Of a stretch of 64,000 bases of DNA, positions 44,512 through 52,551 are shown in pieces. The stretch's first letter is position 1; each line of letters opens with the position of its first letter. The position numbers and the translations under genes are program-made. The notes beneath the pieces were generated by a model. That model saw only the letters and a list, made by a program, of their open reading frames with translations, was not told where the DNA came from and searched no databases. This stretch comes from an uncultured Alphaproteobacteria bacterium. GTDB lineage: Bacteria; Pseudomonadota; Alphaproteobacteria; Micavibrionales; UBA2020. Location of the stretch: NCBI GenBank assembly GCA_966211335.1, contig CBIHNF010000001.1, positions 76,078-140,077 of the forward strand. Reading direction: 5' to 3'.

Positions 44512-44772
44512 ATGGCCGGAAAGGTCCAGTTCAATACTGTCTCGCTGAATGCGCCGATGTCGCCGGAAGACATGGGGCGGCACCTGCTGCTGGAAGCCTG
44601 CAAGGATTACCCCGATTTCCAAAAGGCCCTCGGCCTTATCGAATGCGGCGCGACGACCAATGTGCGGGACGACAATGGCTTCACCGCGCTGATGTGGGCG
44701 GTGACCAAGGGCCATGATGATCTGGCTGATGCCATCATCCAGCGCGGGCGTGAAGAAGATTATGCCGAATAG
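44512..44772 (+). CDS. Ankyrin-repeat ORF, upstream part (possibly the N-terminus of a split gene)
   Basis: GATTNVRDDNGFTALMWAVTKGHDDLA; start codon uncertain (44491, 44500 or 44512). Confidence 0.75.
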   Translation: MAGKVQFNTVSLNAPMSPEDMGRHLLLEACKDYPDFQKALGLIECGATTNVRDDNGFTALMWAVTKGHDDLADAIIQRGREEDYAE

Positions 44773-45391
44773 CCCCAACCCCAATTCGCCCTTCCGGCTG
44801 GGCCAGTCGCTGCTGCGCGAATTGCAGGATGCGGAGGGCGATGCCGATACCGCCATCAAGCTCATTGCCCTTGGCGCGGATGCGAATGCGGAAGATATGC
44901 ATGGCTTGAGCTGCCTTGCCATCGCCGCGCGCCGCGGCTGGGCGGATGTGACGGCGGCGCTGCTGCAGTCCGACGCAAAAGTCGACTGGCGCAACCAGGA
45001 CGGCTGGACGCCGCTGCTCTGGGCCGTCACCAACGGTCACACGGCCGTCGCGGAAGTTTTGCTGAAATACAAAGCCGATGTGAACGCGCAGAACGAGAAC
45101 AGCGATACGCCCCTTATCATGGCGACGATGATCGATGATGAACCTGTCCGTGTTCCCATGGCGAAACTGCTGCTGAAACACGGCGCGGATGTGACGATTG
45201 AAGGCAAGAACGGCCAGCGCGCCCATGAATCCGCGATCGAGCAGCATGATGATGCGATGATAAAATTATTGCAGCCCTTATTCGACCGCACCCAGCCGGC
45301 GATCACGCCCCGCGCGCTTCAGTCCGCGACAACGCTGGAGAAAGACCTGCGGCCGTTGAAACCTGTAAAGTTCAAGCCGCCCGGGCATTGA
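44762..45391 (+). CDS. Ankyrin-repeat protein with basic C-terminal tail
   Basis: DGWTPLLWAVTNGH, ADVNAQ...DTPLIMA, GQRAHESA; ends LRPLKPVKFKPPGH. Confidence 0.88.
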   Translation: MPNSPNPNSPFRLGQSLLRELQDAEGDADTAIKLIALGADANAEDMHGLSCLAIAARRGWADVTAALLQSDAKVDWRNQDGWTPLLWAVTNGHTAVAEVLLKYKADVNAQNENSDTPLIMATMIDDEPVRVPMAKLLLKHGADVTIEGKNGQRAHESAIEQHDDAMIKLLQPLFDRTQPAITPRALQSATTLEKDLRPLKPVKFKPPGH

Positions 45392-46094
45392 TGGACTGCA
45401 GAATTTCCGCCGCCGCCGCCGCAGGGTTTGCCGCCTGCGTAATCGGCCGGCCGATCACCAGATAATCCGCGCCCAGCGCCGCCGCCTCGACAGGCGTCAT
45501 AATGCGCTTCTGATCGCCCGCTGCACTTCCTGCAGGGCGAATGCCGGGAACGACGAGCAGCGTTTCGGGTTTCAGAATTTTGCGCAGCACGGCGATTTCC
45601 TGCGGCGAACAGACAATCCCGTGAAGGCCGCAGTCTTCAGCGAGTTTCGCGAGGTGCTGTACCTGTTCTGCTGCGGGAGCCTTCTGGCCGATTTCGCCAA
45701 GGTCCTTGTCATCCAGCGTGGTGAGGACAGTGACGCCAAGTAATTTCGGCGCGGCAACACTGTGTTCAACTGCGGCTTCGGCCGCCGCCTTCACCGCCGC
45801 CTGCATCATGGCACGGCCGCCGGAGGTGTGAATGGTGATGAAGTCCGGCGCGGCCTTGACGGCGGAGCGGATGGCGCCCGCAACCGTGTTGGGAATATCA
45901 TGTAATTTGAGGTCGAGGAAAATTTCAACCTTGCCACCCGCCGCCGTGCGCAGCTCTTTGATGCAGGCAGGACCTTCTGCGGTAAAAAGCTCGAGCCCGA
46001 TTTTAAAACCGAGGTTTGCGCCGGAGAGTTTTTCCACAAGTATTTTCGCCTCTGCAATATCCGCAGCGTCAATGGCGCAGAAAATACCTGTCAT
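45372..46094 (-). CDS. pyrF: Orotidine-5'-phosphate decarboxylase
   Basis: FKIGLE, DLKLHDIPNTV, VPGIRP, DQKR, VIGRPIT. Confidence 0.97.
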   Translation of the reverse strand: MTGIFCAIDAADIAEAKILVEKLSGANLGFKIGLELFTAEGPACIKELRTAAGGKVEIFLDLKLHDIPNTVAGAIRSAVKAAPDFITIHTSGGRAMMQAAVKAAAEAAVEHSVAAPKLLGVTVLTTLDDKDLGEIGQKAPAAEQVQHLAKLAEDCGLHGIVCSPQEIAVLRKILKPETLLVVPGIRPAGSAAGDQKRIMTPVEAAALGADYLVIGRPITQAANPAAAAAEILQSINARAA

Positions 46095-46105
46095 GGGAAA
46101 ATTCC

Positions 46106-46570
46106 TTATTTAATTTCGAAGATCGCATCCACCTCGACCGCCGCGCCGAGCGGCAAAGCGGCGACGCCGACGGCGGCACGCGCATGTTTACCAGCCTCCG
46201 CGAAAACCGCGACGATCAAATCAGACGCGCCGTTGATGACTTTGGGATGATCATAAAAATCATGCGTCGAGGCGACAAAGCCGCCGAGGCGCAGGCAGCG
46301 CGTAATGCGGCTAAGATCGCCGTTCAGCGCGGCATTCGCCTGCGCGATGATATTGATGGCGCAGGCCTTCGCTGCCTCCTGCCCTTCCTCGACCGACATA
46401 TTTTCCCCAAGCTGGCCTTTGATGAGATGGCCGTCTTTCGACGGCAGCTGGCCGGAGATATACAGAGTGTTGCCGGAAATGGTGTAGGGCACATAGTTGG
46501 CCAGCGGCGCCGCCAGCTGCGGCAGCACGATGTTGAGGGCAGTGAGGCGTTCGGAAATTTTGTCGGACAT
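46106..46570 (-). CDS. RidA/YjgF family protein
   Basis: ANYVPY, YISGQLP, FYDHPKVINGASDL, HARAAVG. Confidence 0.93.
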   Translation of the reverse strand: MSDKISERLTALNIVLPQLAAPLANYVPYTISGNTLYISGQLPSKDGHLIKGQLGENMSVEEGQEAAKACAINIIAQANAALNGDLSRITRCLRLGGFVASTHDFYDHPKVINGASDLIVAVFAEAGKHARAAVGVAALPLGAAVEVDAIFEIK

Positions 46571-46637
46571 GAAAAAGCTCCTTTAGCGATGAACCTAAAG
46601 GAGCTTATGCCGTCATGCAACGGTGGCTTGAAGCGAC

Positions 46638-46811
46638 CTACATATTGCTGAGGTCGAGCTTGGCGAAATTGTTGTATTCAACGTCCGGCGCGACGGTTGC
46701 GACCATCACTTCCTTGCGCGGCGAGGAGGCGGAAAAGCCGGAGCGGAGATCCGGCATGCTGGCAGCCCAGGCCTCGGCTTCGGGGAAGTTTGCTTCTTTA
46801 ATGACGTTCAT
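46638..46811 (-). CDS. Untracked 57-aa hypothetical protein
   Basis: Manual translation MNVIKEANFPEAEAWAASMPDLRSGFSASSPRKEVMVATVAPDVEYNNFAKLDLSNM; host-like GC3; AAGG upstream. Confidence 0.6.
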   Translation of the reverse strand: MNVIKEANFPEAEAWAASMPDLRSGFSASSPRKEVMVATVAPDVEYNNFAKLDLSNM

Positions 46812-46870
46812 GTTGTGCCTTGCCTTCTTTACGCCGGTAAGATGCGCTTCTTTATTCTGGTAATAGGTTC

Positions 46871-46903
46871 AGTATAGGCTTTGAAAGATTAACACAGCGT
46901 TAA
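46871..46903 (-). promoter_or_regulatory. Perfect CtrA box plus -10 element
   Basis: TTAA-N7-TTAA at 46889-46903, then 12 nt, then TATACT (46871-46876) on the minus strand. Confidence 0.75.
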
Positions 46904-47086
46904 GATTGGCAGCGTTCAAGTGGCTTGAGAATATATTTTAAGTAATTGAAAATATAAGGAAATGTAGTGGGAACTTTGTCCATTTCATATGTTTTACATA
47001 TTATTTGCTATTTTAAGCCTCTTTCGGCATAATGTTGCTCACCTTTCCGCGGGGAGAATCGGCAAGGGCATCTAGGGGGAAGAATC

Positions 47087-47920
47087 ATGAGTTTGCTGAA
47101 AGCCATCTTTAATCGCGCCGCGCCTGCGCTGACGCCGGAGCAACAGCTGGCGCTGGATACTGCGCTGCTGGATGCCGCCCAGTTCAATAATGTCGAGAAG
47201 ATAAAAGAGCTGCTGGACAAGGGCGCCAATATCAACGCCCGCGCGCCGAATACGGAAGACACTCCCCTCATCATCGCCAGCCGCGAAGACGATCTGGCAG
47301 ATGTCGTCAACTTCCTGCTCGACCAGAAGCCCGACCTGACCCCCGTCAACAGCATCGGCCAGACGGCATTACACGTTATTCTGCGGGAGCATAACAGCGC
47401 TGCCTGCGCCATCCGCATGATTAACGCGGACGCGCCATTGAATGGACGCGACATGCACGGCGCGACCCCCGCCTTCTGGGCGGCGCAAGACGGCCGCACT
47501 GATGTAATGGAAGCGCTGATCGCCAAGGACGCCGACCTGACCATACCCAACAACGCGGGCGAACTGCCGCTGATGCATGCGACGAAACTGCCGCACCCCG
47601 CAACGGTTGCCGTGATGCTGAAAGCGAATGCCGGCATCGACGTGCCGGACGAGGAAGGCATGACGGGCCTGATGTGGTCTATTCTGCTGCACAAGCCCAA
47701 ACAGGCGATGTTGTACATAGAAGCGGGCTGCAACATTATGATGCAGAACAAAGCCGGCGAAAACGCGCTCGACCTTGCGAAAAAAGAAGGCCTTGATGAG
47801 GTTGCGACCGCCCTGCGCCTGAAGATGGCAGAAAATATGGCGCCGATTTTGGAAGGCGTCAAAATCAAGCCGATCAAAACCGTCCGCTTCGCCGCGAAGC
47901 CGCCGACGAGCTTGCGTTAA
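47087..47920 (+). CDS. Ankyrin-repeat protein with basic C-terminal tail
   Basis: GANINAR...DTPLIIA, GQTALH, GATPAFWAA, GELPLMHA, GMTGLMW; ends IKPIKTVRFAAKPPTSLR. Confidence 0.92.
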   Translation: MSLLKAIFNRAAPALTPEQQLALDTALLDAAQFNNVEKIKELLDKGANINARAPNTEDTPLIIASREDDLADVVNFLLDQKPDLTPVNSIGQTALHVILREHNSAACAIRMINADAPLNGRDMHGATPAFWAAQDGRTDVMEALIAKDADLTIPNNAGELPLMHATKLPHPATVAVMLKANAGIDVPDEEGMTGLMWSILLHKPKQAMLYIEAGCNIMMQNKAGENALDLAKKEGLDEVATALRLKMAENMAPILEGVKIKPIKTVRFAAKPPTSLR

Positions 47921-50539
47921 TTAAAGAACAGCCTTGCTGCGCAGGGGCACTTCTGCCGCCTCTTCAGCCATTTCTTCTGCATCATCGGATTCACTTAGCG
48001 GCAACGCCAGCGGGTGCAGCAGGGAACAACCGTCACGGTAGAGGGACAGGCGCTTGACGCCGAGTTCCCAGCCGAGCAGCAGCAGCTTCTGGACATCTTC
48101 AATCGCGGTGTAATGCGACAGCTCAATTGTGTGGCAGACCGCGCCGGAGAGGAACGGCTCCACTGCCGCCTGCATTTTTACCTGCGCGTCCGGCATGACG
48201 CGGCGGACACCGGAGCCTGCGGGCGCAATACCGTCAAACACGGCCATATGCTGCGGCAGCAGGTGCGGCGCGCCTTCCAAAGTCATGGCACCACAGCAGT
48301 ACAAATTCGCGTCATCAATATCGTCTTCGGAAAAGCCGAGCGCGCGCAGCATGTCGAAGGTGCCGCTCTCGAGGCTGCCGTTGTCAAAGCCCAGCATGCG
48401 CTGGCAGAAATCATCCCCCAGCGTCCATTTGTTGAAGACATAGCGGATATGCTGCGCGGTGCCGAGGGCTGCTTCCAAAGCATCCAGCGCCGCCTGATGG
48501 AAACCGAGTTTTTTTAACGACGCATGGTTGATGGCGGGGGCGGACAGCAGCGTGCCGTGGCCGACCGCATAGAAGTTGATGTCGTCAATTTCCGCCGCGC
48601 CATAGCCGAGCTTCTGCAGCGCGCGCGGCACCAAGGGATTGAGCTTCTTGCCATACAGCGCCGCCTGCTCCCCGCCTTCGAAATGGCCTTCAAAGCGCAC
48701 CAAGGCGGGTGCCGGCGCAATGTCGCGCGCGGGGGATGACAGCAGCGACTGCATGGCGGCGGGGGTGCCCAGCGCGGTCAAATGCGCGTGGCGGAAGCCT
48801 TTGTCCCGCCCCGCATGATAGGCACGCGCCCAGGTATCGCGCACGGCATCCGCCAGATGCGGGTCGGGCGACAGCGTGGCTTTCAGCTGCACAGGTCGGC
48901 GTGTCAGGCCCTTCTGCATGTAAGACGTGCCGTTGAAGGCGCTGATTTTATCCTTCAGCCCCTGCAGGCAGTTTTTTTCGAACTTCGGATAGGCCTCAAA
49001 CGCGCCGGTGCGCTGCGCGATCAGGCCGGAGGCTTCCTGCGCCGCGCCGGTGACCAGCGCCGTGACAAGCCCTGCCACCGCGCGGCCGGCGTCTGAATCA
49101 TAGGCCAGCGCATTGCCCATGAGCACGCCGGAAAGTCCCGTGACGCCGATATTCAGGGGGCGGTACTGCAGCGTTTCCGGCGAAGGATTGGAAATGGCGA
49201 AAGACGCTTCCAGCGCGAGGGTGATGATTTTAACAACATGCACCAGCCGTTCCGCATCCAGCACATGCGCGCCGGTGCTGAATTTCAACAGGTTGACAGT
49301 CGCGCCCGGCGCGGCAGTGCCGGGCAGGAAGATCATGCCGCCCGTGCCGCTGGGGCTTAAGGGCAGGCCCGCATCCTGCAGCGGCGAGGCGGCGGCCGAT
49401 GAGTCACGGAAAAACAGCGCGGGATCACCCGACGACCAAATGGCGGCGGCAATGCCGTTCCAGAGTTTTTCGGCAGGATAATGTTTTAGTGCCGCGCCGC
49501 CTTCCACCAGCATGAAGCTATGGCCGGTCAGCGCGCGTTCGATAAATTCGTCGGGCAGCGACAGCGTGGCATCGAGCGGCGGGGAGGTAATATCTTCTTC
49601 CACCGGTTGCAGGCCGATATCTTCATATCCCTGCTGCGCATAGCTCAGCGCCATGCGGATGGCGGCATCGCTGATGCCCGCACGGCGCGCTTCGGAAATC
49701 GCCAGCTTCAGGCGACCATTGTAAGCGGGATCAAAACCGAACACCGTATCGCGGTCGCAGGCGTCCATGATGTAATGCAGCGCGGAATCGAGAGCCTTGC
49801 GGCCGAGGGTTGCGGAAACCGTATCGATATCCGACTGGCGCTTCATGTTGATGAAGGCAAGGCTGTCGGCGCATTCAACCGGCAGCGTCACCGCGATTTT
49901 CTGGCTAGGCGCGTCGACGGCTTTTGCATCGCCAAGAATTTTCAGCCGCTTCAGAATATTTTTTTCCGGCGCATCGGCGCTCACCGTCACGGCGGCGGCG
50001 GCGATTTTATTGCCGGTGAGTTCCGTCGAGAACGGCAGGATCTGCGCCGTTGGTGTAAAACTTGCGGGCAGGCCATAGGCCCAGTCGAGGCCCGCGGCCG
50101 CCAGCGCCTTCAGCTCCAGCGCGGCATATTGGTGCAGCAGAATAAACTGCAGCTCGGCGCGGAAGGTTTTTGCTTCTTCCTCGCTGGTGAAGAGCCCTAC
50201 CTTCCAGCCGTGGTAGGTGAGGCCACCGGAGATGCGCGCAAAAACATCCGTGAAGTGCATTTCCTGCCCGTAGCGGAATTCGGCGGAGATGGCATCAAGC
50301 CCCTGTTCATCGGCGATATGCCGCCACAGCCATTGCGGCACGCCTGCTTCCTCGACCGGCAGCAGCAGCGAAGGGATAGGCATTTTGCAGAATATTTCGT
50401 CCACAAGGACGCTCGCCGCCGCCTCCCCCCAATGCTTGGGCACGGCGTATTCCACCCAGTCTTCGCCCTGAACGACGCGCGCCTGTACGGGGCTTTGCGG
50501 ATTCTCTTCGGCTTTTGTGAAATGACGGGCGATCAGCAA
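47921..50539 (-). CDS. Class II (B12-dependent) ribonucleotide reductase homolog with eroded catalytic motifs
   Basis: NrdJ landmarks GLTYHGWKVG, GLDWAYG, YDSDAGRA, YAVGHGTL, FNKWTLG, CGAMTLEGAP and LYRDG are present; NPCSE reads SPSGTG. Start uncertain (TTG 50539 or ATG 50584). Confidence 0.88.
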   Translation of the reverse strand: MLIARHFTKAEENPQSPVQARVVQGEDWVEYAVPKHWGEAAASVLVDEIFCKMPIPSLLLPVEEAGVPQWLWRHIADEQGLDAISAEFRYGQEMHFTDVFARISGGLTYHGWKVGLFTSEEEAKTFRAELQFILLHQYAALELKALAAAGLDWAYGLPASFTPTAQILPFSTELTGNKIAAAAVTVSADAPEKNILKRLKILGDAKAVDAPSQKIAVTLPVECADSLAFINMKRQSDIDTVSATLGRKALDSALHYIMDACDRDTVFGFDPAYNGRLKLAISEARRAGISDAAIRMALSYAQQGYEDIGLQPVEEDITSPPLDATLSLPDEFIERALTGHSFMLVEGGAALKHYPAEKLWNGIAAAIWSSGDPALFFRDSSAAASPLQDAGLPLSPSGTGGMIFLPGTAAPGATVNLLKFSTGAHVLDAERLVHVVKIITLALEASFAISNPSPETLQYRPLNIGVTGLSGVLMGNALAYDSDAGRAVAGLVTALVTGAAQEASGLIAQRTGAFEAYPKFEKNCLQGLKDKISAFNGTSYMQKGLTRRPVQLKATLSPDPHLADAVRDTWARAYHAGRDKGFRHAHLTALGTPAAMQSLLSSPARDIAPAPALVRFEGHFEGGEQAALYGKKLNPLVPRALQKLGYGAAEIDDINFYAVGHGTLLSAPAINHASLKKLGFHQAALDALEAALGTAQHIRYVFNKWTLGDDFCQRMLGFDNGSLESGTFDMLRALGFSEDDIDDANLYCCGAMTLEGAPHLLPQHMAVFDGIAPAGSGVRRVMPDAQVKMQAAVEPFLSGAVCHTIELSHYTAIEDVQKLLLLGWELGVKRLSLYRDGCSLLHPLALPLSESDDAEEMAEEAAEVPLRSKAVL

Positions 50540-50722
50540 GGGAATAACCAATTGAATTGAAACAAAATCAATAGAGAACGGCATTATGGGGCGGCCCCGA
50601 CTGTCGCATAAGCCACAGGGCAAAATCAATCGTTGCTTGGAAGGCGTTGCGGGGCAGAAAAAAGTTGCGCTTTTCAACCATCTGGGCTTATTTATGGTGC
50701 TTGTAGAATTAAAGGAACCGCG

Positions 50723-51115
50723 ATGGCGAAAATTTCCATATTCGGCGTTATCAGCAATGTGCAGATGCTGTTCCACACCATGCTGCGCGGCAGCTTTGTC
50801 GGCAAGGACACGCTCGGCAATAAATATTACCGCGGCAAGCCCCGCAAGGGCACGAAACGCGAGCGCCGCTGGGTGATGTTCGCCGGCGCGCCCGAAGCCT
50901 CGACCGTACCGCCGGAATGGCATGGCTGGCTGCACCACCAGACGGATAAAGTGCCGCCGCTGAACGGCAGCCACCACCGCAAGCCCTGGCAATTGCCGCA
51001 CCAGCCCAACCAGACCGGCACCGCCGGCGCCTACCTGCCCCCCGGCCACACGCTGAAGGGCGGCGCGCGCGATGGTGCCACCGGCGACTACACCGCCTGG
51101 CAGCCGCCGCGCTAA
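50723..51115 (+). CDS. NDUFA12-family complex I accessory protein
   Basis: VGKDTLGNKYY, RRWVMF, PPEWHGWLHH, HQPNQTGT, DYTAWQP. Confidence 0.92.
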   Translation: MAKISIFGVISNVQMLFHTMLRGSFVGKDTLGNKYYRGKPRKGTKRERRWVMFAGAPEASTVPPEWHGWLHHQTDKVPPLNGSHHRKPWQLPHQPNQTGTAGAYLPPGHTLKGGARDGATGDYTAWQPPR

Positions 51116-51157: not shown

Positions 51158-51748
51158 ATGAAAAGAAATATGGTTGAAACAATTCTGGGCGCCGTGGTTC
51201 TGCTGGTCGCCGGCTGTTTCCTGCTGTTCTTCTACCGCACGACGGACATCAAACCCGCAACGGGCTACGAGCTGGTCGCGGAATTCGACAAGATCGACGG
51301 CCTGCAGGTCGGCACCCCCGTGCGCATCAGCGGCGTCAAGGTCGGCCAGGTGACGCGCTTTGAACTCAACCACAAAAACTACCGCGCCGATGTGTACCTG
51401 AATGTGCAGGATGATGTGAAACTGCCGGTCGACAGCTCTGCCGTGATTGCGAGCGCCGGCCTGCTGGACGGCAAATTCATGACACTGACTCCCGGCGGCG
51501 ATGAAGAAATGCTGAAGCCCGGCGGCCATATTGAATACACGCAGTCGAGCGCGAGCCTGGAGCAGATGCTGGGCCAGTTTATCTTCAGCGTCAGCAAATC
51601 GAAAAAATCGGACGACGAGGACGAAGCTGCCTCGCCTGAGAAAGACGCGCCGAAAACGCCGGATGCGACCGAAGATAAGGCACCGGAAAAATCGGGTGAC
51701 GCCCCTGCCCCCGCCACCAATAAAGACGACGGAGACGATCACCCGTGA
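51158..51748 (+). CDS. mlaD: MlaD/MCE protein with acidic tail
   Basis: TM anchor, DGLQVGTPVRISGVKVGQV, GLLDGKFMTLTPG. Confidence 0.92.
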   Translation: MKRNMVETILGAVVLLVAGCFLLFFYRTTDIKPATGYELVAEFDKIDGLQVGTPVRISGVKVGQVTRFELNHKNYRADVYLNVQDDVKLPVDSSAVIASAGLLDGKFMTLTPGGDEEMLKPGGHIEYTQSSASLEQMLGQFIFSVSKSKKSDDEDEAASPEKDAPKTPDATEDKAPEKSGDAPAPATNKDDGDDHP

Positions 51749-52551
51749 TGCGTCCTTTCCTCCTTCTTGGCCTTTTGCTGCTGGCGGCAACGCCCGCACA
51801 AGCGGATGGCCGCCAGATGGAGGACACCAGCACGGTTGTGCTGCGCACGATTGACAAGCTTTCCGCCCGCGCGCATACCTTTGACATTCCCGTCGACAAG
51901 ACGGTGAAATTCGGCAATTCGCTGTTCATCAAGGCCCGCGCCTGCCGCAAGTCATCGCCGCTCGACACGCCGGAATCGGCCGCCTTCCTGCAGATTTGGG
52001 AGCGGAAACCGAGCGAGCAGACGGCGCACTGGATTTTCAGCGGCTGGATGTACGGCTCCAACCCCTCGCTCTCCTACATGGACCATCCGGTCTATGACGT
52101 CTGGGTGATCGAGTGCAAGAATGCGGTCACAACCGCGAAGGCATCGGAAGAATTCTCCTCCGAAAAAGTGCCGGAACATGCGCCGGCCAAAGACGCTGTC
52201 GCGCCCGCTTCATCGGACAAATCCGCCGCCGCGACGACGCCGACCGCCGTGCCGCTGACGGATAAATCCGGCGACAAGGCGGAAGTCAAAGCCGCCGATA
52301 AATCCAAGCCTGACGCCAAGCCCGCGCTGCTGAAGCCCGAAGCGCATAAGGGCGCGGCAGACCCTGAAAAAGAACTGCTTGACCGTTCGGTGTCGGAAGA
52401 TGACGACGGTGATGCCGACAAGCCCGCCGCAGCGCCCGTTCCCGCCGGTGAAATTGCGCCGGACGCCAAGCCGACGCCCGCCCCGCCGATTGAAAAACTG
52501 CCGGGCTCCTTCGAGGACGGCGAAGACCCCAATAATCTTCCCGCCGACTGA
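51745..52551 (+). CDS. DUF2155-domain protein with Pro/Ala/Lys/Asp-rich tail
   Basis: Signal peptide, LRTIDKLSA, AFLQIW, IFSGWMYGSNPSLSYMDHPVYDVWVIEC. Confidence 0.88.
   Translation: MMRPFLLLGLLLLAATPAQADGRQMEDTSTVVLRTIDKLSARAHTFDIPVDKTVKFGNSLFIKARACRKSSPLDTPESAAFLQIWERKPSEQTAHWIFSGWMYGSNPSLSYMDHPVYDVWVIECKNAVTTAKASEEFSSEKVPEHAPAKDAVAPASSDKSAAATTPTAVPLTDKSGDKAEVKAADKSKPDAKPALLKPEAHKGAADPEKELLDRSVSEDDDGDADKPAAAPVPAGEIAPDAKPTPAPPIEKLPGSFEDGEDPNNLPAD

Follow-up and report, generated by a model that had tools for sequence, protein, structure and literature searches.

A conserved NrdJ-like protein without catalytic residues at the ancestral nrdJ locus of an uncultured member of the Micavibrionales

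Ribonucleotide reductases (RNRs) are among the most intensively studied enzymes, and a few viral pseudo-RNRs are known. The betaherpesvirus homologues of the large subunit R1 (M45/UL45) are catalytically inactive and act via an added N-terminal motif on host cell-death proteins. In the literature we found no description of an RNR large subunit from bacteria that is under strong selection despite being catalytically dead. This report describes a candidate for such a protein. It is encoded in a stretch of 64,000 nucleotides (the window) from an uncultured alphaproteobacterium of the order Micavibrionales (assembly GCA_966211335.1, contig CBIHNF010000001.1, positions 76,078 to 140,077), and we refer to its gene as pseudo-nrdJ. 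A first, sequence-only reading of the window had called it an intact class II RNR with every catalytic site lost and had suggested that it was selected for a new, non-enzymatic role. Like M45/UL45, the window protein has lost its catalytic residues and appears to be retained under selection for a non-enzymatic function, and it would be a new case, here a bacterial one, of a known theme, the pseudo-RNR. The viral proteins are derived from class I enzymes, however; we know of no specific homology between them and the window protein, and no shared mechanism is implied.

The NrdJ of Rhodobacter sphaeroides (7B9P and 7B9Q) belongs to the NrdJd subclass of class II enzymes (NCBIfam PRK07562). Fietze and co-workers (2022) are said to have found that a domain named HUG stabilises the active dimer of this enzyme. 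The NrdJd of Stackebrandtia nassauensis, which is of the same subclass as the window protein, is an active enzyme with a Cys-rich zinc-finger C-terminal domain that delivers electrons and supports oligomerisation; a truncation without this Cys-rich domain is still active with dithiothreitol, whereas the window protein lacks the active site as well (Loderer et al. 2017, PMC5704485). The roles of several RNR elements that will be needed below are also known. The dimer interface and the specificity site are built from helices alphaA and alphaB together with loops 1 and 2, the long hairpin alphaH-betaH is thought to bind the radical cofactor, and the pocket for the adenosyl group is situated between betaJ and the Cys of the finger loop (Burnim et al., PMC9531940). 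Finally, the curated family NF005401 (PRK06948), 'ribonucleotide reductase-like protein', consists of proteins that are likewise not called reductases, but the window protein is not a member of it (54.4 bits against a cut-off of 906).

An NrdJ-like fold without catalytic and regulatory parts

The coding sequence of pseudo-nrdJ and the parts of its product that are discussed below are as follows; pLDDT is the predicted local distance difference test of the AlphaFold2 (AF2) model, and omega is the ratio of non-synonymous to synonymous substitution rates (dN/dS).

47921..50539, minus strand: pseudo-nrdJ, 872 amino acids (aa), TTG start at 50539, TAA stop at 47923-47921
50066..50539, minus strand: N-terminal domain, residues 1-158, the PF08471 region, ending in GLDWAYG; 22 of the 99 shared conserved positions
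50105-50122, minus strand: ALELKA (formerly APNSPQ), inside the N-terminal domain
49880..50065, minus strand: collapsed betaA-alphaA-loop1-alphaB-loop2 segment, residues 159-220, the former specificity-site and dimer-helix region, without PHACFIQ and GGTTRRAAK
49580..49879, minus strand: NrdJd-type helical insert, residues 221-320, with the motifs MDACDRD (49748-49768), GFDP..N and YA.QG.E
49298..49360, minus strand: former finger loop and betaF, residues 394-414, LSPSGTGGMIFLPGTAAPGAT
48755..48772, minus strand: former substrate phosphate loop, residues 590-595, LGTPAA
48605..48709, minus strand: long beta-hairpin alphaH-betaH, residues 611-645, LVRFEG...LYGKKLNP, with strands 614-619 and 628-633; omega 0.00-0.13
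48170..48604, minus strand: NrdJd-specific insert, HUG-like, residues 646-790, FYAVGHGTLL..FNKWTLG..CCGAMTLEGAPHL
48005..48169, minus strand: last barrel strands betaH-betaJ, residues 791-845, including LYRDGC (48026-48043); omega 0.00-0.08
47924..48004, minus strand: acidic-then-basic disordered tail, residues 846-872; pLDDT < 50, omega 0.2-1

The minus-strand frame is uninterrupted from 51049 to 47921. When 27 orthologous upstream regions were compared, most orthologues proved to have a stop two to three codons 5' of the conserved N-terminus M(R/L)IAR..T, and so the TTG at 50539 is taken as the start homologous to theirs, exactly as first proposed; the database copy of the protein has 887 aa and was called from a more upstream ATG. 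The open reading frame (ORF) of about 870 aa reported earlier is thus real, and its codons are indeed host-like: the G+C content at third codon positions is 0.73, compared with 0.65-0.85 in the neighbours, and the codon counts correlate with those of the genome's MetH and NrdA at r = 0.86.

The homology of the protein to NrdJ is clear. It matches the class II N-terminal domain (PF08471) and the RNR barrel (PF02867) in Pfam, where no ATP-cone was found, and the match to the barrel model is broken by the NrdJd-specific insert, from about residue 655 to 731. Both the NCBIfam model for long NrdJ, NF005736 (524.5 bits, cut-off 1737), and TIGR02504 (120.7 bits, cut-off 399.95) score below their cut-offs, and none of the PADLOC anti-phage defence families matched at E <= 0.01. 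The best match in the PDB is R. sphaeroides NrdJ 7B9P (E 1e-121), with which the protein is colinear, as the claim of colinearity with alphaproteobacterial NrdJ had foreseen; identity to the real enzyme is 30-35%. An AF2 model built on an alignment of 117 sequences has a pLDDT of 92.1 and a predicted template modelling (TM) score of 0.91. Searched with Foldseek, this model finds 7B9P with a TM score of 0.86, and then T. maritima NrdJ (0.52/0.71) and class I large subunits. The RNR barrel, ten-stranded and of the alpha/beta type, is thus predicted with confidence, together with the NrdJd accessory domains; the N-domain, helical insert, beta-hairpin, HUG-like insert and C-terminal barrel strands are common to R. 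sphaeroides NrdJ and the window protein. We take the insert 646-790 to be probably the 'HUG' dimer-clasp domain.

The gene is also the positional orthologue of alphaproteobacterial B12-dependent NrdJd and stands at the ancestral nrdJ locus. It is divergent from NDUFA12, MlaD and DUF2155, and the true nrdJ genes of Allostella and Tistlia lie 1-3 kb from the same three genes, which agrees with the earlier description of these genes as the usual nrdJ neighbourhood.

What the window protein does not share with R. sphaeroides NrdJ are the thiyl Cys with its Asn and Glu, the redox cysteines, the phosphate loop and the C-terminal Cys-rich domain, and its alphaA/loop-1 region is collapsed. Each motif replacement listed in the sequence-only reading was confirmed residue by residue in the alignment with 7B9P. 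SNPCSE has become PSGTGG, with T399 in place of the thiyl Cys, S397 in place of the Asn and G401 in place of the Glu. TACNLAS reads TAAPGAT, so that the second redox Cys, on betaF, is A410, and A410-P411 is fixed at 90% or more in the dead family, by which we mean the window protein and its close relatives described below. APNSPQ reads ALELKA, and IAPTGT reads LGTPAA in a loop that varies across the family. PHACFIQ (with the first redox Cys, on betaA), GGTTRRAAK and SGQNSNNS have no counterpart in the window protein.

The specificity region is reduced by about half: residues 159-220 (62 residues) stand where 7B9P has residues 169-284 (about 116). AF2 places a short helix at 172-176 and another helix at 195-209 in this segment, and alphaA is accordingly a helix of five residues; for the real NrdJ P0109, AF2 has low confidence in alphaA and loop 1, and the structural comparison there is approximate only. 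At the other end, the protein stops 34 residues past LYRDGC, as had been noticed, and the tail 846-872 takes the place of the linker, TSCPD and zinc-finger domain of real NrdJd; the protein has neither TSCPD nor a Cys-rich C-terminus, and a TSCPD domain has no match anywhere in the genome. Judged by these residues, the window protein cannot be a ribonucleotide reductase, and its canonical effector site is missing.

One further likeness may be mentioned for the helical insert. Residues of about 268-302 (GFDP..N..L..A...AR.AG.PEAA.R.AI.YA.QG) weakly resemble the N-domain of YebC/TACO1 (PF20772, E 0.018). The same match is precomputed for many real NrdJ proteins and reaches 24.6 bits in the dead protein P0135.

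Selection, newly fixed positions and the wider clade

A protein search returned about 92 clusters of relatives of 780-920 aa with 39-87% identity, and the named members are Micavibrio sp. or metagenome-assembled genomes (MAGs) of Alphaproteobacteria. Every catalytic motif, SNPCSE included, is missing in all 92 family members, and the finger loop is variable and in some members deleted. The genomes of 60 relatives were examined for intact copies, the survey covering 37 genomes in the window's own family and 24 in seven other families of the order. Within the family, 35 of the 37 genomes carry an intact copy that no internal stop interrupts, across seven genera and at 43-87% identity. In the seven other families, a copy was found in one of the 24 genomes (G049), and it is dead yet less diverged. 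This copy (locus L041, G049:C67, 4047-6614) is an NrdJ-like ORF of 856 aa in which SNPCSE reads SNAGFL, and it retains TINEW and, in TSCPTAT, a Cys; perhaps it represents an intermediate, or perhaps a form that is eroding independently.

The pairwise dN/dS of pseudo-nrdJ (NG86) is 0.044-0.15 at dS 0.4-0.9. Calculated by region, it stays within 0.00-0.25 for all structural regions, the former active-site barrel among them, and it is relaxed only in the disordered tail. The neighbouring genes gave the following values in the same genome pairs.

CorA: dN/dS 0.02-0.09
MscS: dN/dS 0.08-0.11
PyrF: dN/dS 0.07-0.14
NDUFA12: dN/dS 0.12-0.31
MlaD: dN/dS 0.09-0.30

Since these values are comparable to those of pseudo-nrdJ, the gene is constrained like housekeeping genes. 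The loss of all catalytic motifs, and branches that are 2-4 times longer than in real NrdJ, might suggest a decaying pseudogene or an annotation artefact that is open by chance. However, the copies are intact in nearly all genomes of the family down to 43% identity, dN/dS is as low as given above, motifs specific to the family are conserved, and the fold is predicted with confidence. Neutral decay with frequent stops is not what the orthologues display, and we regard this explanation as extremely improbable and, as far as sequence analysis reaches, already refuted. The core of the sequence-only reading, a catalytically dead yet selected protein, is therefore borne out.

The pattern of what was kept is informative. 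Mean pairwise identities were calculated by region within the dead family, within real NrdJ proteins and between the two. In that order, they are 0.65, 0.64 and 0.52 for the insert 646-790; 0.61, 0.86 and 0.40 for the beta-hairpin 611-645; 0.60, 0.86 and 0.38 for the last barrel strands 791-845; and 0.34, 0.90 and 0.13 for the collapsed segment 159-220, the least conserved region. The insert is the only region that is conserved as much as in the real enzymes, so that the impression that the stretch from YAVGHGTL to CCGAMTLEGAP was the best-preserved part is now supported by measurement. Conservation of at least 90% in the dead and in the real proteins alike is found at 99 positions, and 51 of them fall in two regions, 29 in the insert and 22 in the N-domain. 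Another 207 positions are at least 95% conserved in real NrdJ but lost in the dead family, and only five of these are in the insert. When the roles of the RNR elements (PMC9531940) are overlaid on this regional conservation, the dead family is seen to have shed the substrate, effector and reductant parts and held on to the block on the cofactor side.

Forty-nine positions are fixed at 90% or more in the dead family only, and they are the mark of a new constraint, beyond mere retention. They include D259, D262 and R263 (in MDACDRD), E306, D330, E334, T338 and H340 (the last four in LSVPD.FIE.ALTGH), and also R378 (FFRDS), R547, R548 and H586. These positions are concentrated in the helical insert and the middle of the barrel, and many are acidic, basic or His.

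The family is not isolated. A dead-family profile was searched against 1.84 billion representative proteins and gave 1864 matches at E <= 1e-30. Of the best 150 of these 1864, 141 were new. The same best 150 contain 81 proteins of at least 650 aa without the thiyl Cys and about 55 that retain N-C-E, including intein-split ones. The dead proteins among them are 690-1640 aa long, and many of the long ones still carry TSCPD; a CxxC...CxxC tail is retained in 15 of the 81, and their alphaA-alphaB segment ranges from zero to the full 67 residues. On sequence grounds, these proteins form a graded erosion series in which the Micavibrio type is a strongly reduced form and one branch of a large, unannotated clade of dead NrdJd proteins. 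In a FastTree of 164 sequences, a single branch (SH-like support 99) sets 95 of the 100 dead proteins apart, and its dead side holds no active enzyme; a smaller IQ-TREE has the same split between dead and active. The window protein, with its NrdJd homology, missing thiyl Cys and purifying selection, lies inside this all-dead side of 95 members. The topology would be compatible with a single ancient loss followed by radiation.

The other members of the clade, for example RefSeq WP_150214167.1 of 'Candidatus Tokpelaia sp.', which is annotated as a vitamin B12-dependent RNR, likewise have no thiyl Cys and are placed on this side of the branch. Many differ from the window protein in being longer (1000-1640 aa) and in having TSCPD, sometimes the zinc-finger tail, and a full-length alphaA-alphaB; the window's family is among the most reduced.

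In the alignment, NrdJ representatives of 1300-2000 aa (P0188, P0202, P0209, P0213, P0233 and P0248) are broken exactly at the position of the thiyl Cys (SNP-SEY or SNPNSEY). Many active NrdJd representatives are long and interrupted in this way, which would fit the insertion of inteins at the catalytic cysteine. None of the control genomes reaches the PRK07562 cut-off, the matches being scored piecewise; the Caulobacter protein CCNA_01966 has been named NrdJ (PMC6538847).

Possible roles of the protein

The genome, which is 96.6% complete, has only one other RNR barrel, the class I NrdA (NLCSEI, with a C-terminal CLACQ) that adjoins NrdB; NrdB was found in 58 of 61 relatives. Deoxyribonucleotides are thus predicted to be made by class I NrdAB, the active RNR that had to be sought elsewhere, and there is no active NrdJ in the genome. 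A MetH is present (C1:999699-1003532, DVHDIGK motif), and the genome contains no detectable MetE, no cobalamin riboswitch and no PduO- or CobA-type corrinoid adenosyltransferase. Because such a transferase is missing, the cell cannot make adenosylcobalamin (AdoCbl) by known routes. This fits with the loss of AdoCbl chemistry, cobalamin still being needed for MetH, and the organism appears to depend on scavenged cobalamin for methionine synthase alone.

Since all of the catalytic parts are lost and the protein is nevertheless conserved as tightly as the products of housekeeping genes, it must have another job. From the conserved regions and the model, we consider it somewhat probable that this is a non-catalytic binding or scaffold protein, probably dimeric through its HUG-like clasp, with the old cofactor face as its working surface. 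The ten-stranded barrel is retained as a scaffold, along with the accessory modules of NrdJd (N-domain, helical insert, cofactor-side beta-hairpin, HUG-like insert and last barrel strands). Lost are the binding of substrate and the radical chemistry, and also the C-terminal domain that shuttles reductant and the canonical deoxynucleotide (dNTP) specificity site. Dimerisation would still proceed via the HUG-like clasp, and the hairpin, the insert and betaH-J, which make up the former cofactor face, would be the functional surface. In this way, the protein may preserve a second property, unrelated to catalysis, that is found in real NrdJd enzymes too. For what it binds, there are two leading candidates, a corrinoid and a partner protein.

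Several points weigh against this interpretation. The former finger loop shows little conservation, and most of alphaA, which makes up half of the canonical dimer interface, is missing, and so the protein could be monomeric. The HUG label of residues 646-790 is putative. The locus has no conserved operon partner that hints at a ligand or a pathway, as 23 further loci share backbone synteny only. In addition, the FastTree was built from fast-evolving sequences that were sampled with the dead-family profile, and long-branch attraction may inflate the single-clade result.

A more definite role could be that of a corrinoid-binding protein, which keeps the cobalamin-binding face and captures, stores or hands over scavenged B12, for example to MetH. 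Descent from an AdoCbl enzyme would make this natural, the parts with an implied role in cofactor binding, the beta-hairpin and the betaJ region (PMC9531940), rank among those under the strongest constraint, and a MetH without MetE points to B12 dependence, with no cobalamin riboswitch. However, the adenosyl pocket is bounded by betaJ and the finger-loop Cys, and the loop with this Cys is variable or even deleted in the family; no PduO- or CobA-type adenosyltransferase is encoded. Class II RNRs, moreover, bind AdoCbl only weakly and reversibly. We judge this role rather unlikely. With no such adenosyltransferase in the genome, a sensor of AdoCbl, as the sequence-only reading had proposed under the name of B12 sensor, has become less likely, although some corrinoid binding would be possible. 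The other roles proposed there, a nucleotide sensor or a regulatory partner of an active RNR that works through dNTP binding at the specificity site or through a heterodimer, fare worse, even though RNR large subunits are natural nucleotide sensors. There is no ATP-cone; the segment of alphaA, loop 1 and loop 2 is about halved, shows less conservation than any other region and shares 13% identity with real NrdJ; the genome offers no active NrdJ as a partner, its sole working RNR being class I NrdAB; and class I alpha dimerises via the same helices that the window protein has lost. No convincing NrdR boxes were found upstream in a scan that was underpowered. These nucleotide-sensor and regulator roles are thus not supported, and we consider them very improbable.

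The barrel may instead have been re-tooled as a new enzyme, with D259, D262, R263, E306, D330, E334, H340, R378 and H586 in its active site. The 49 family-specific positions, many of them acidic, basic or His, and the very low omega in the former active-site barrel would be in keeping with this. On the other hand, the Pfam, NCBIfam and PADLOC searches found no similarity to any other enzyme family, and in the 23 further loci the gene is not accompanied by genes for a cofactor or a pathway; we hold a new enzyme to be improbable. To return to the binding or scaffold protein that we favour, a more far-reaching and decidedly tentative version, which we think is possible but doubtful, would be that a second non-catalytic function of NrdJd, seated in the N-domain, helical insert, hairpin and HUG insert, outlived catalysis in one ancient event. 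Among uncultured and host-associated Alphaproteobacteria, that event would have founded a large radiation of 'ex-reductases' with at least 95 clusters at 50% identity or less, and in the Micavibrio type, the former active-site region would have gained a polar site (D259, D262, R263, E306, D330, E334, H340 and R378) that binds a metal or small ligand.

Whatever the role, the pattern of kept and discarded parts amounts to a natural dissection in which the NrdJd accessory domains are separated from catalysis, and it hints that these domains may do more than stabilise the active enzyme. The graded series from full-length dead proteins to strongly reduced ones provides material for studying how an essential enzyme becomes a pseudoenzyme. 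There is also a practical side. Members of the dead family and of the wider clade carry public labels such as 'vitamin B12-dependent ribonucleotide reductase', 'ribonucleoside-diphosphate reductase alpha chain' or 'hypothetical protein', and the RNR labels therefore cause metabolic reconstructions to credit these organisms wrongly with a B12-dependent, oxygen-independent dNTP route.

The locus and its neighbouring elements

The genes that anchor the synteny and a promoter-like element lie upstream of pseudo-nrdJ.

50723-51115, plus strand: NDUFA12, synteny anchor, divergent from pseudo-nrdJ
51158-51748, plus strand: MlaD, synteny anchor
51745-52551, plus strand: DUF2155, synteny anchor
50600..50629, minus strand: promoter-like element, TTGATT, 17-18 nucleotides (nt), (T)ATGCGACAGT, at about 60 nt from the start; its function is putative

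In 23 further MAG loci the gene order is the same, with CorA-GNAT-hyp131-DUF2155-MlaD-NDUFA12 on one side and, in divergent orientation, pseudoNrdJ-(Ank)-hyp57-YjgF-PyrF-AccD-FolC on the other. All of the carriers found in the genome contig search are MAGs, with no cultured carrier among them. The expression table of M. aeruginosavorus ARL-13 has no recognisable pseudo-nrdJ entry, and synteny around pyrF differs in that organism.

When the 27 upstream regions were aligned by eye, a promoter-like element, TTGAT-N17-18-TGTG(C/T)CACAGT, proved to be conserved across genera at about 60-80 nt 5' of the start; in the window, TTGATT is at 50629-50624 and GACAGT at 50605-50600. A second conserved motif, GCGCAAYnnTTTTCT at 50656-50670, was considered as a regulon motif and rejected, being unique in the genome and fitting the -35 region of the divergent NDUFA12 promoter. 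A riboswitch or other RNA was also rejected, as no Rfam family matched in the whole window. The genome does have nrdR, but the rough consensus scan mentioned above, underpowered as it was, found no pair of NrdR boxes 5' of pseudo-nrdJ and likewise none 5' of nrdAB.

On the downstream side, the stop codons of an ankyrin-repeat gene (47087-47920, plus strand) and of pseudo-nrdJ (minus strand) abut at 47917-47924: TTAATTAA. With no intergenic bases between the two convergent genes, there is no space for a terminator. One to three ankyrin-repeat genes lie between pseudo-nrdJ and yjgF-pyrF-accD in most genera (window 44512-47920, and loci L043-L065), and they are missing in L060 and L062; within a backbone that is otherwise conserved, these genes for eukaryote-like repeat proteins make up a variable islet. 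Four other loci (L011, L012, L015 and L016) have a co-directional ORF of about 171 aa for a membrane protein (MADTLEY.YKVN.KKMGLLIPVIAGLA...) at or overlapping the stop of the dead nrdJ. This ORF is limited to one sub-clade (G002, G011, G005 and G001) and is missing from the window. Lastly, hyp57 (window 46615-46863), an ORF of 57 aa 5' of yjgF, is conserved across several genera by tblastn, with matches in loci L043, L044, L052, L058, L060 and L062-L065, and it is probably a real small gene.

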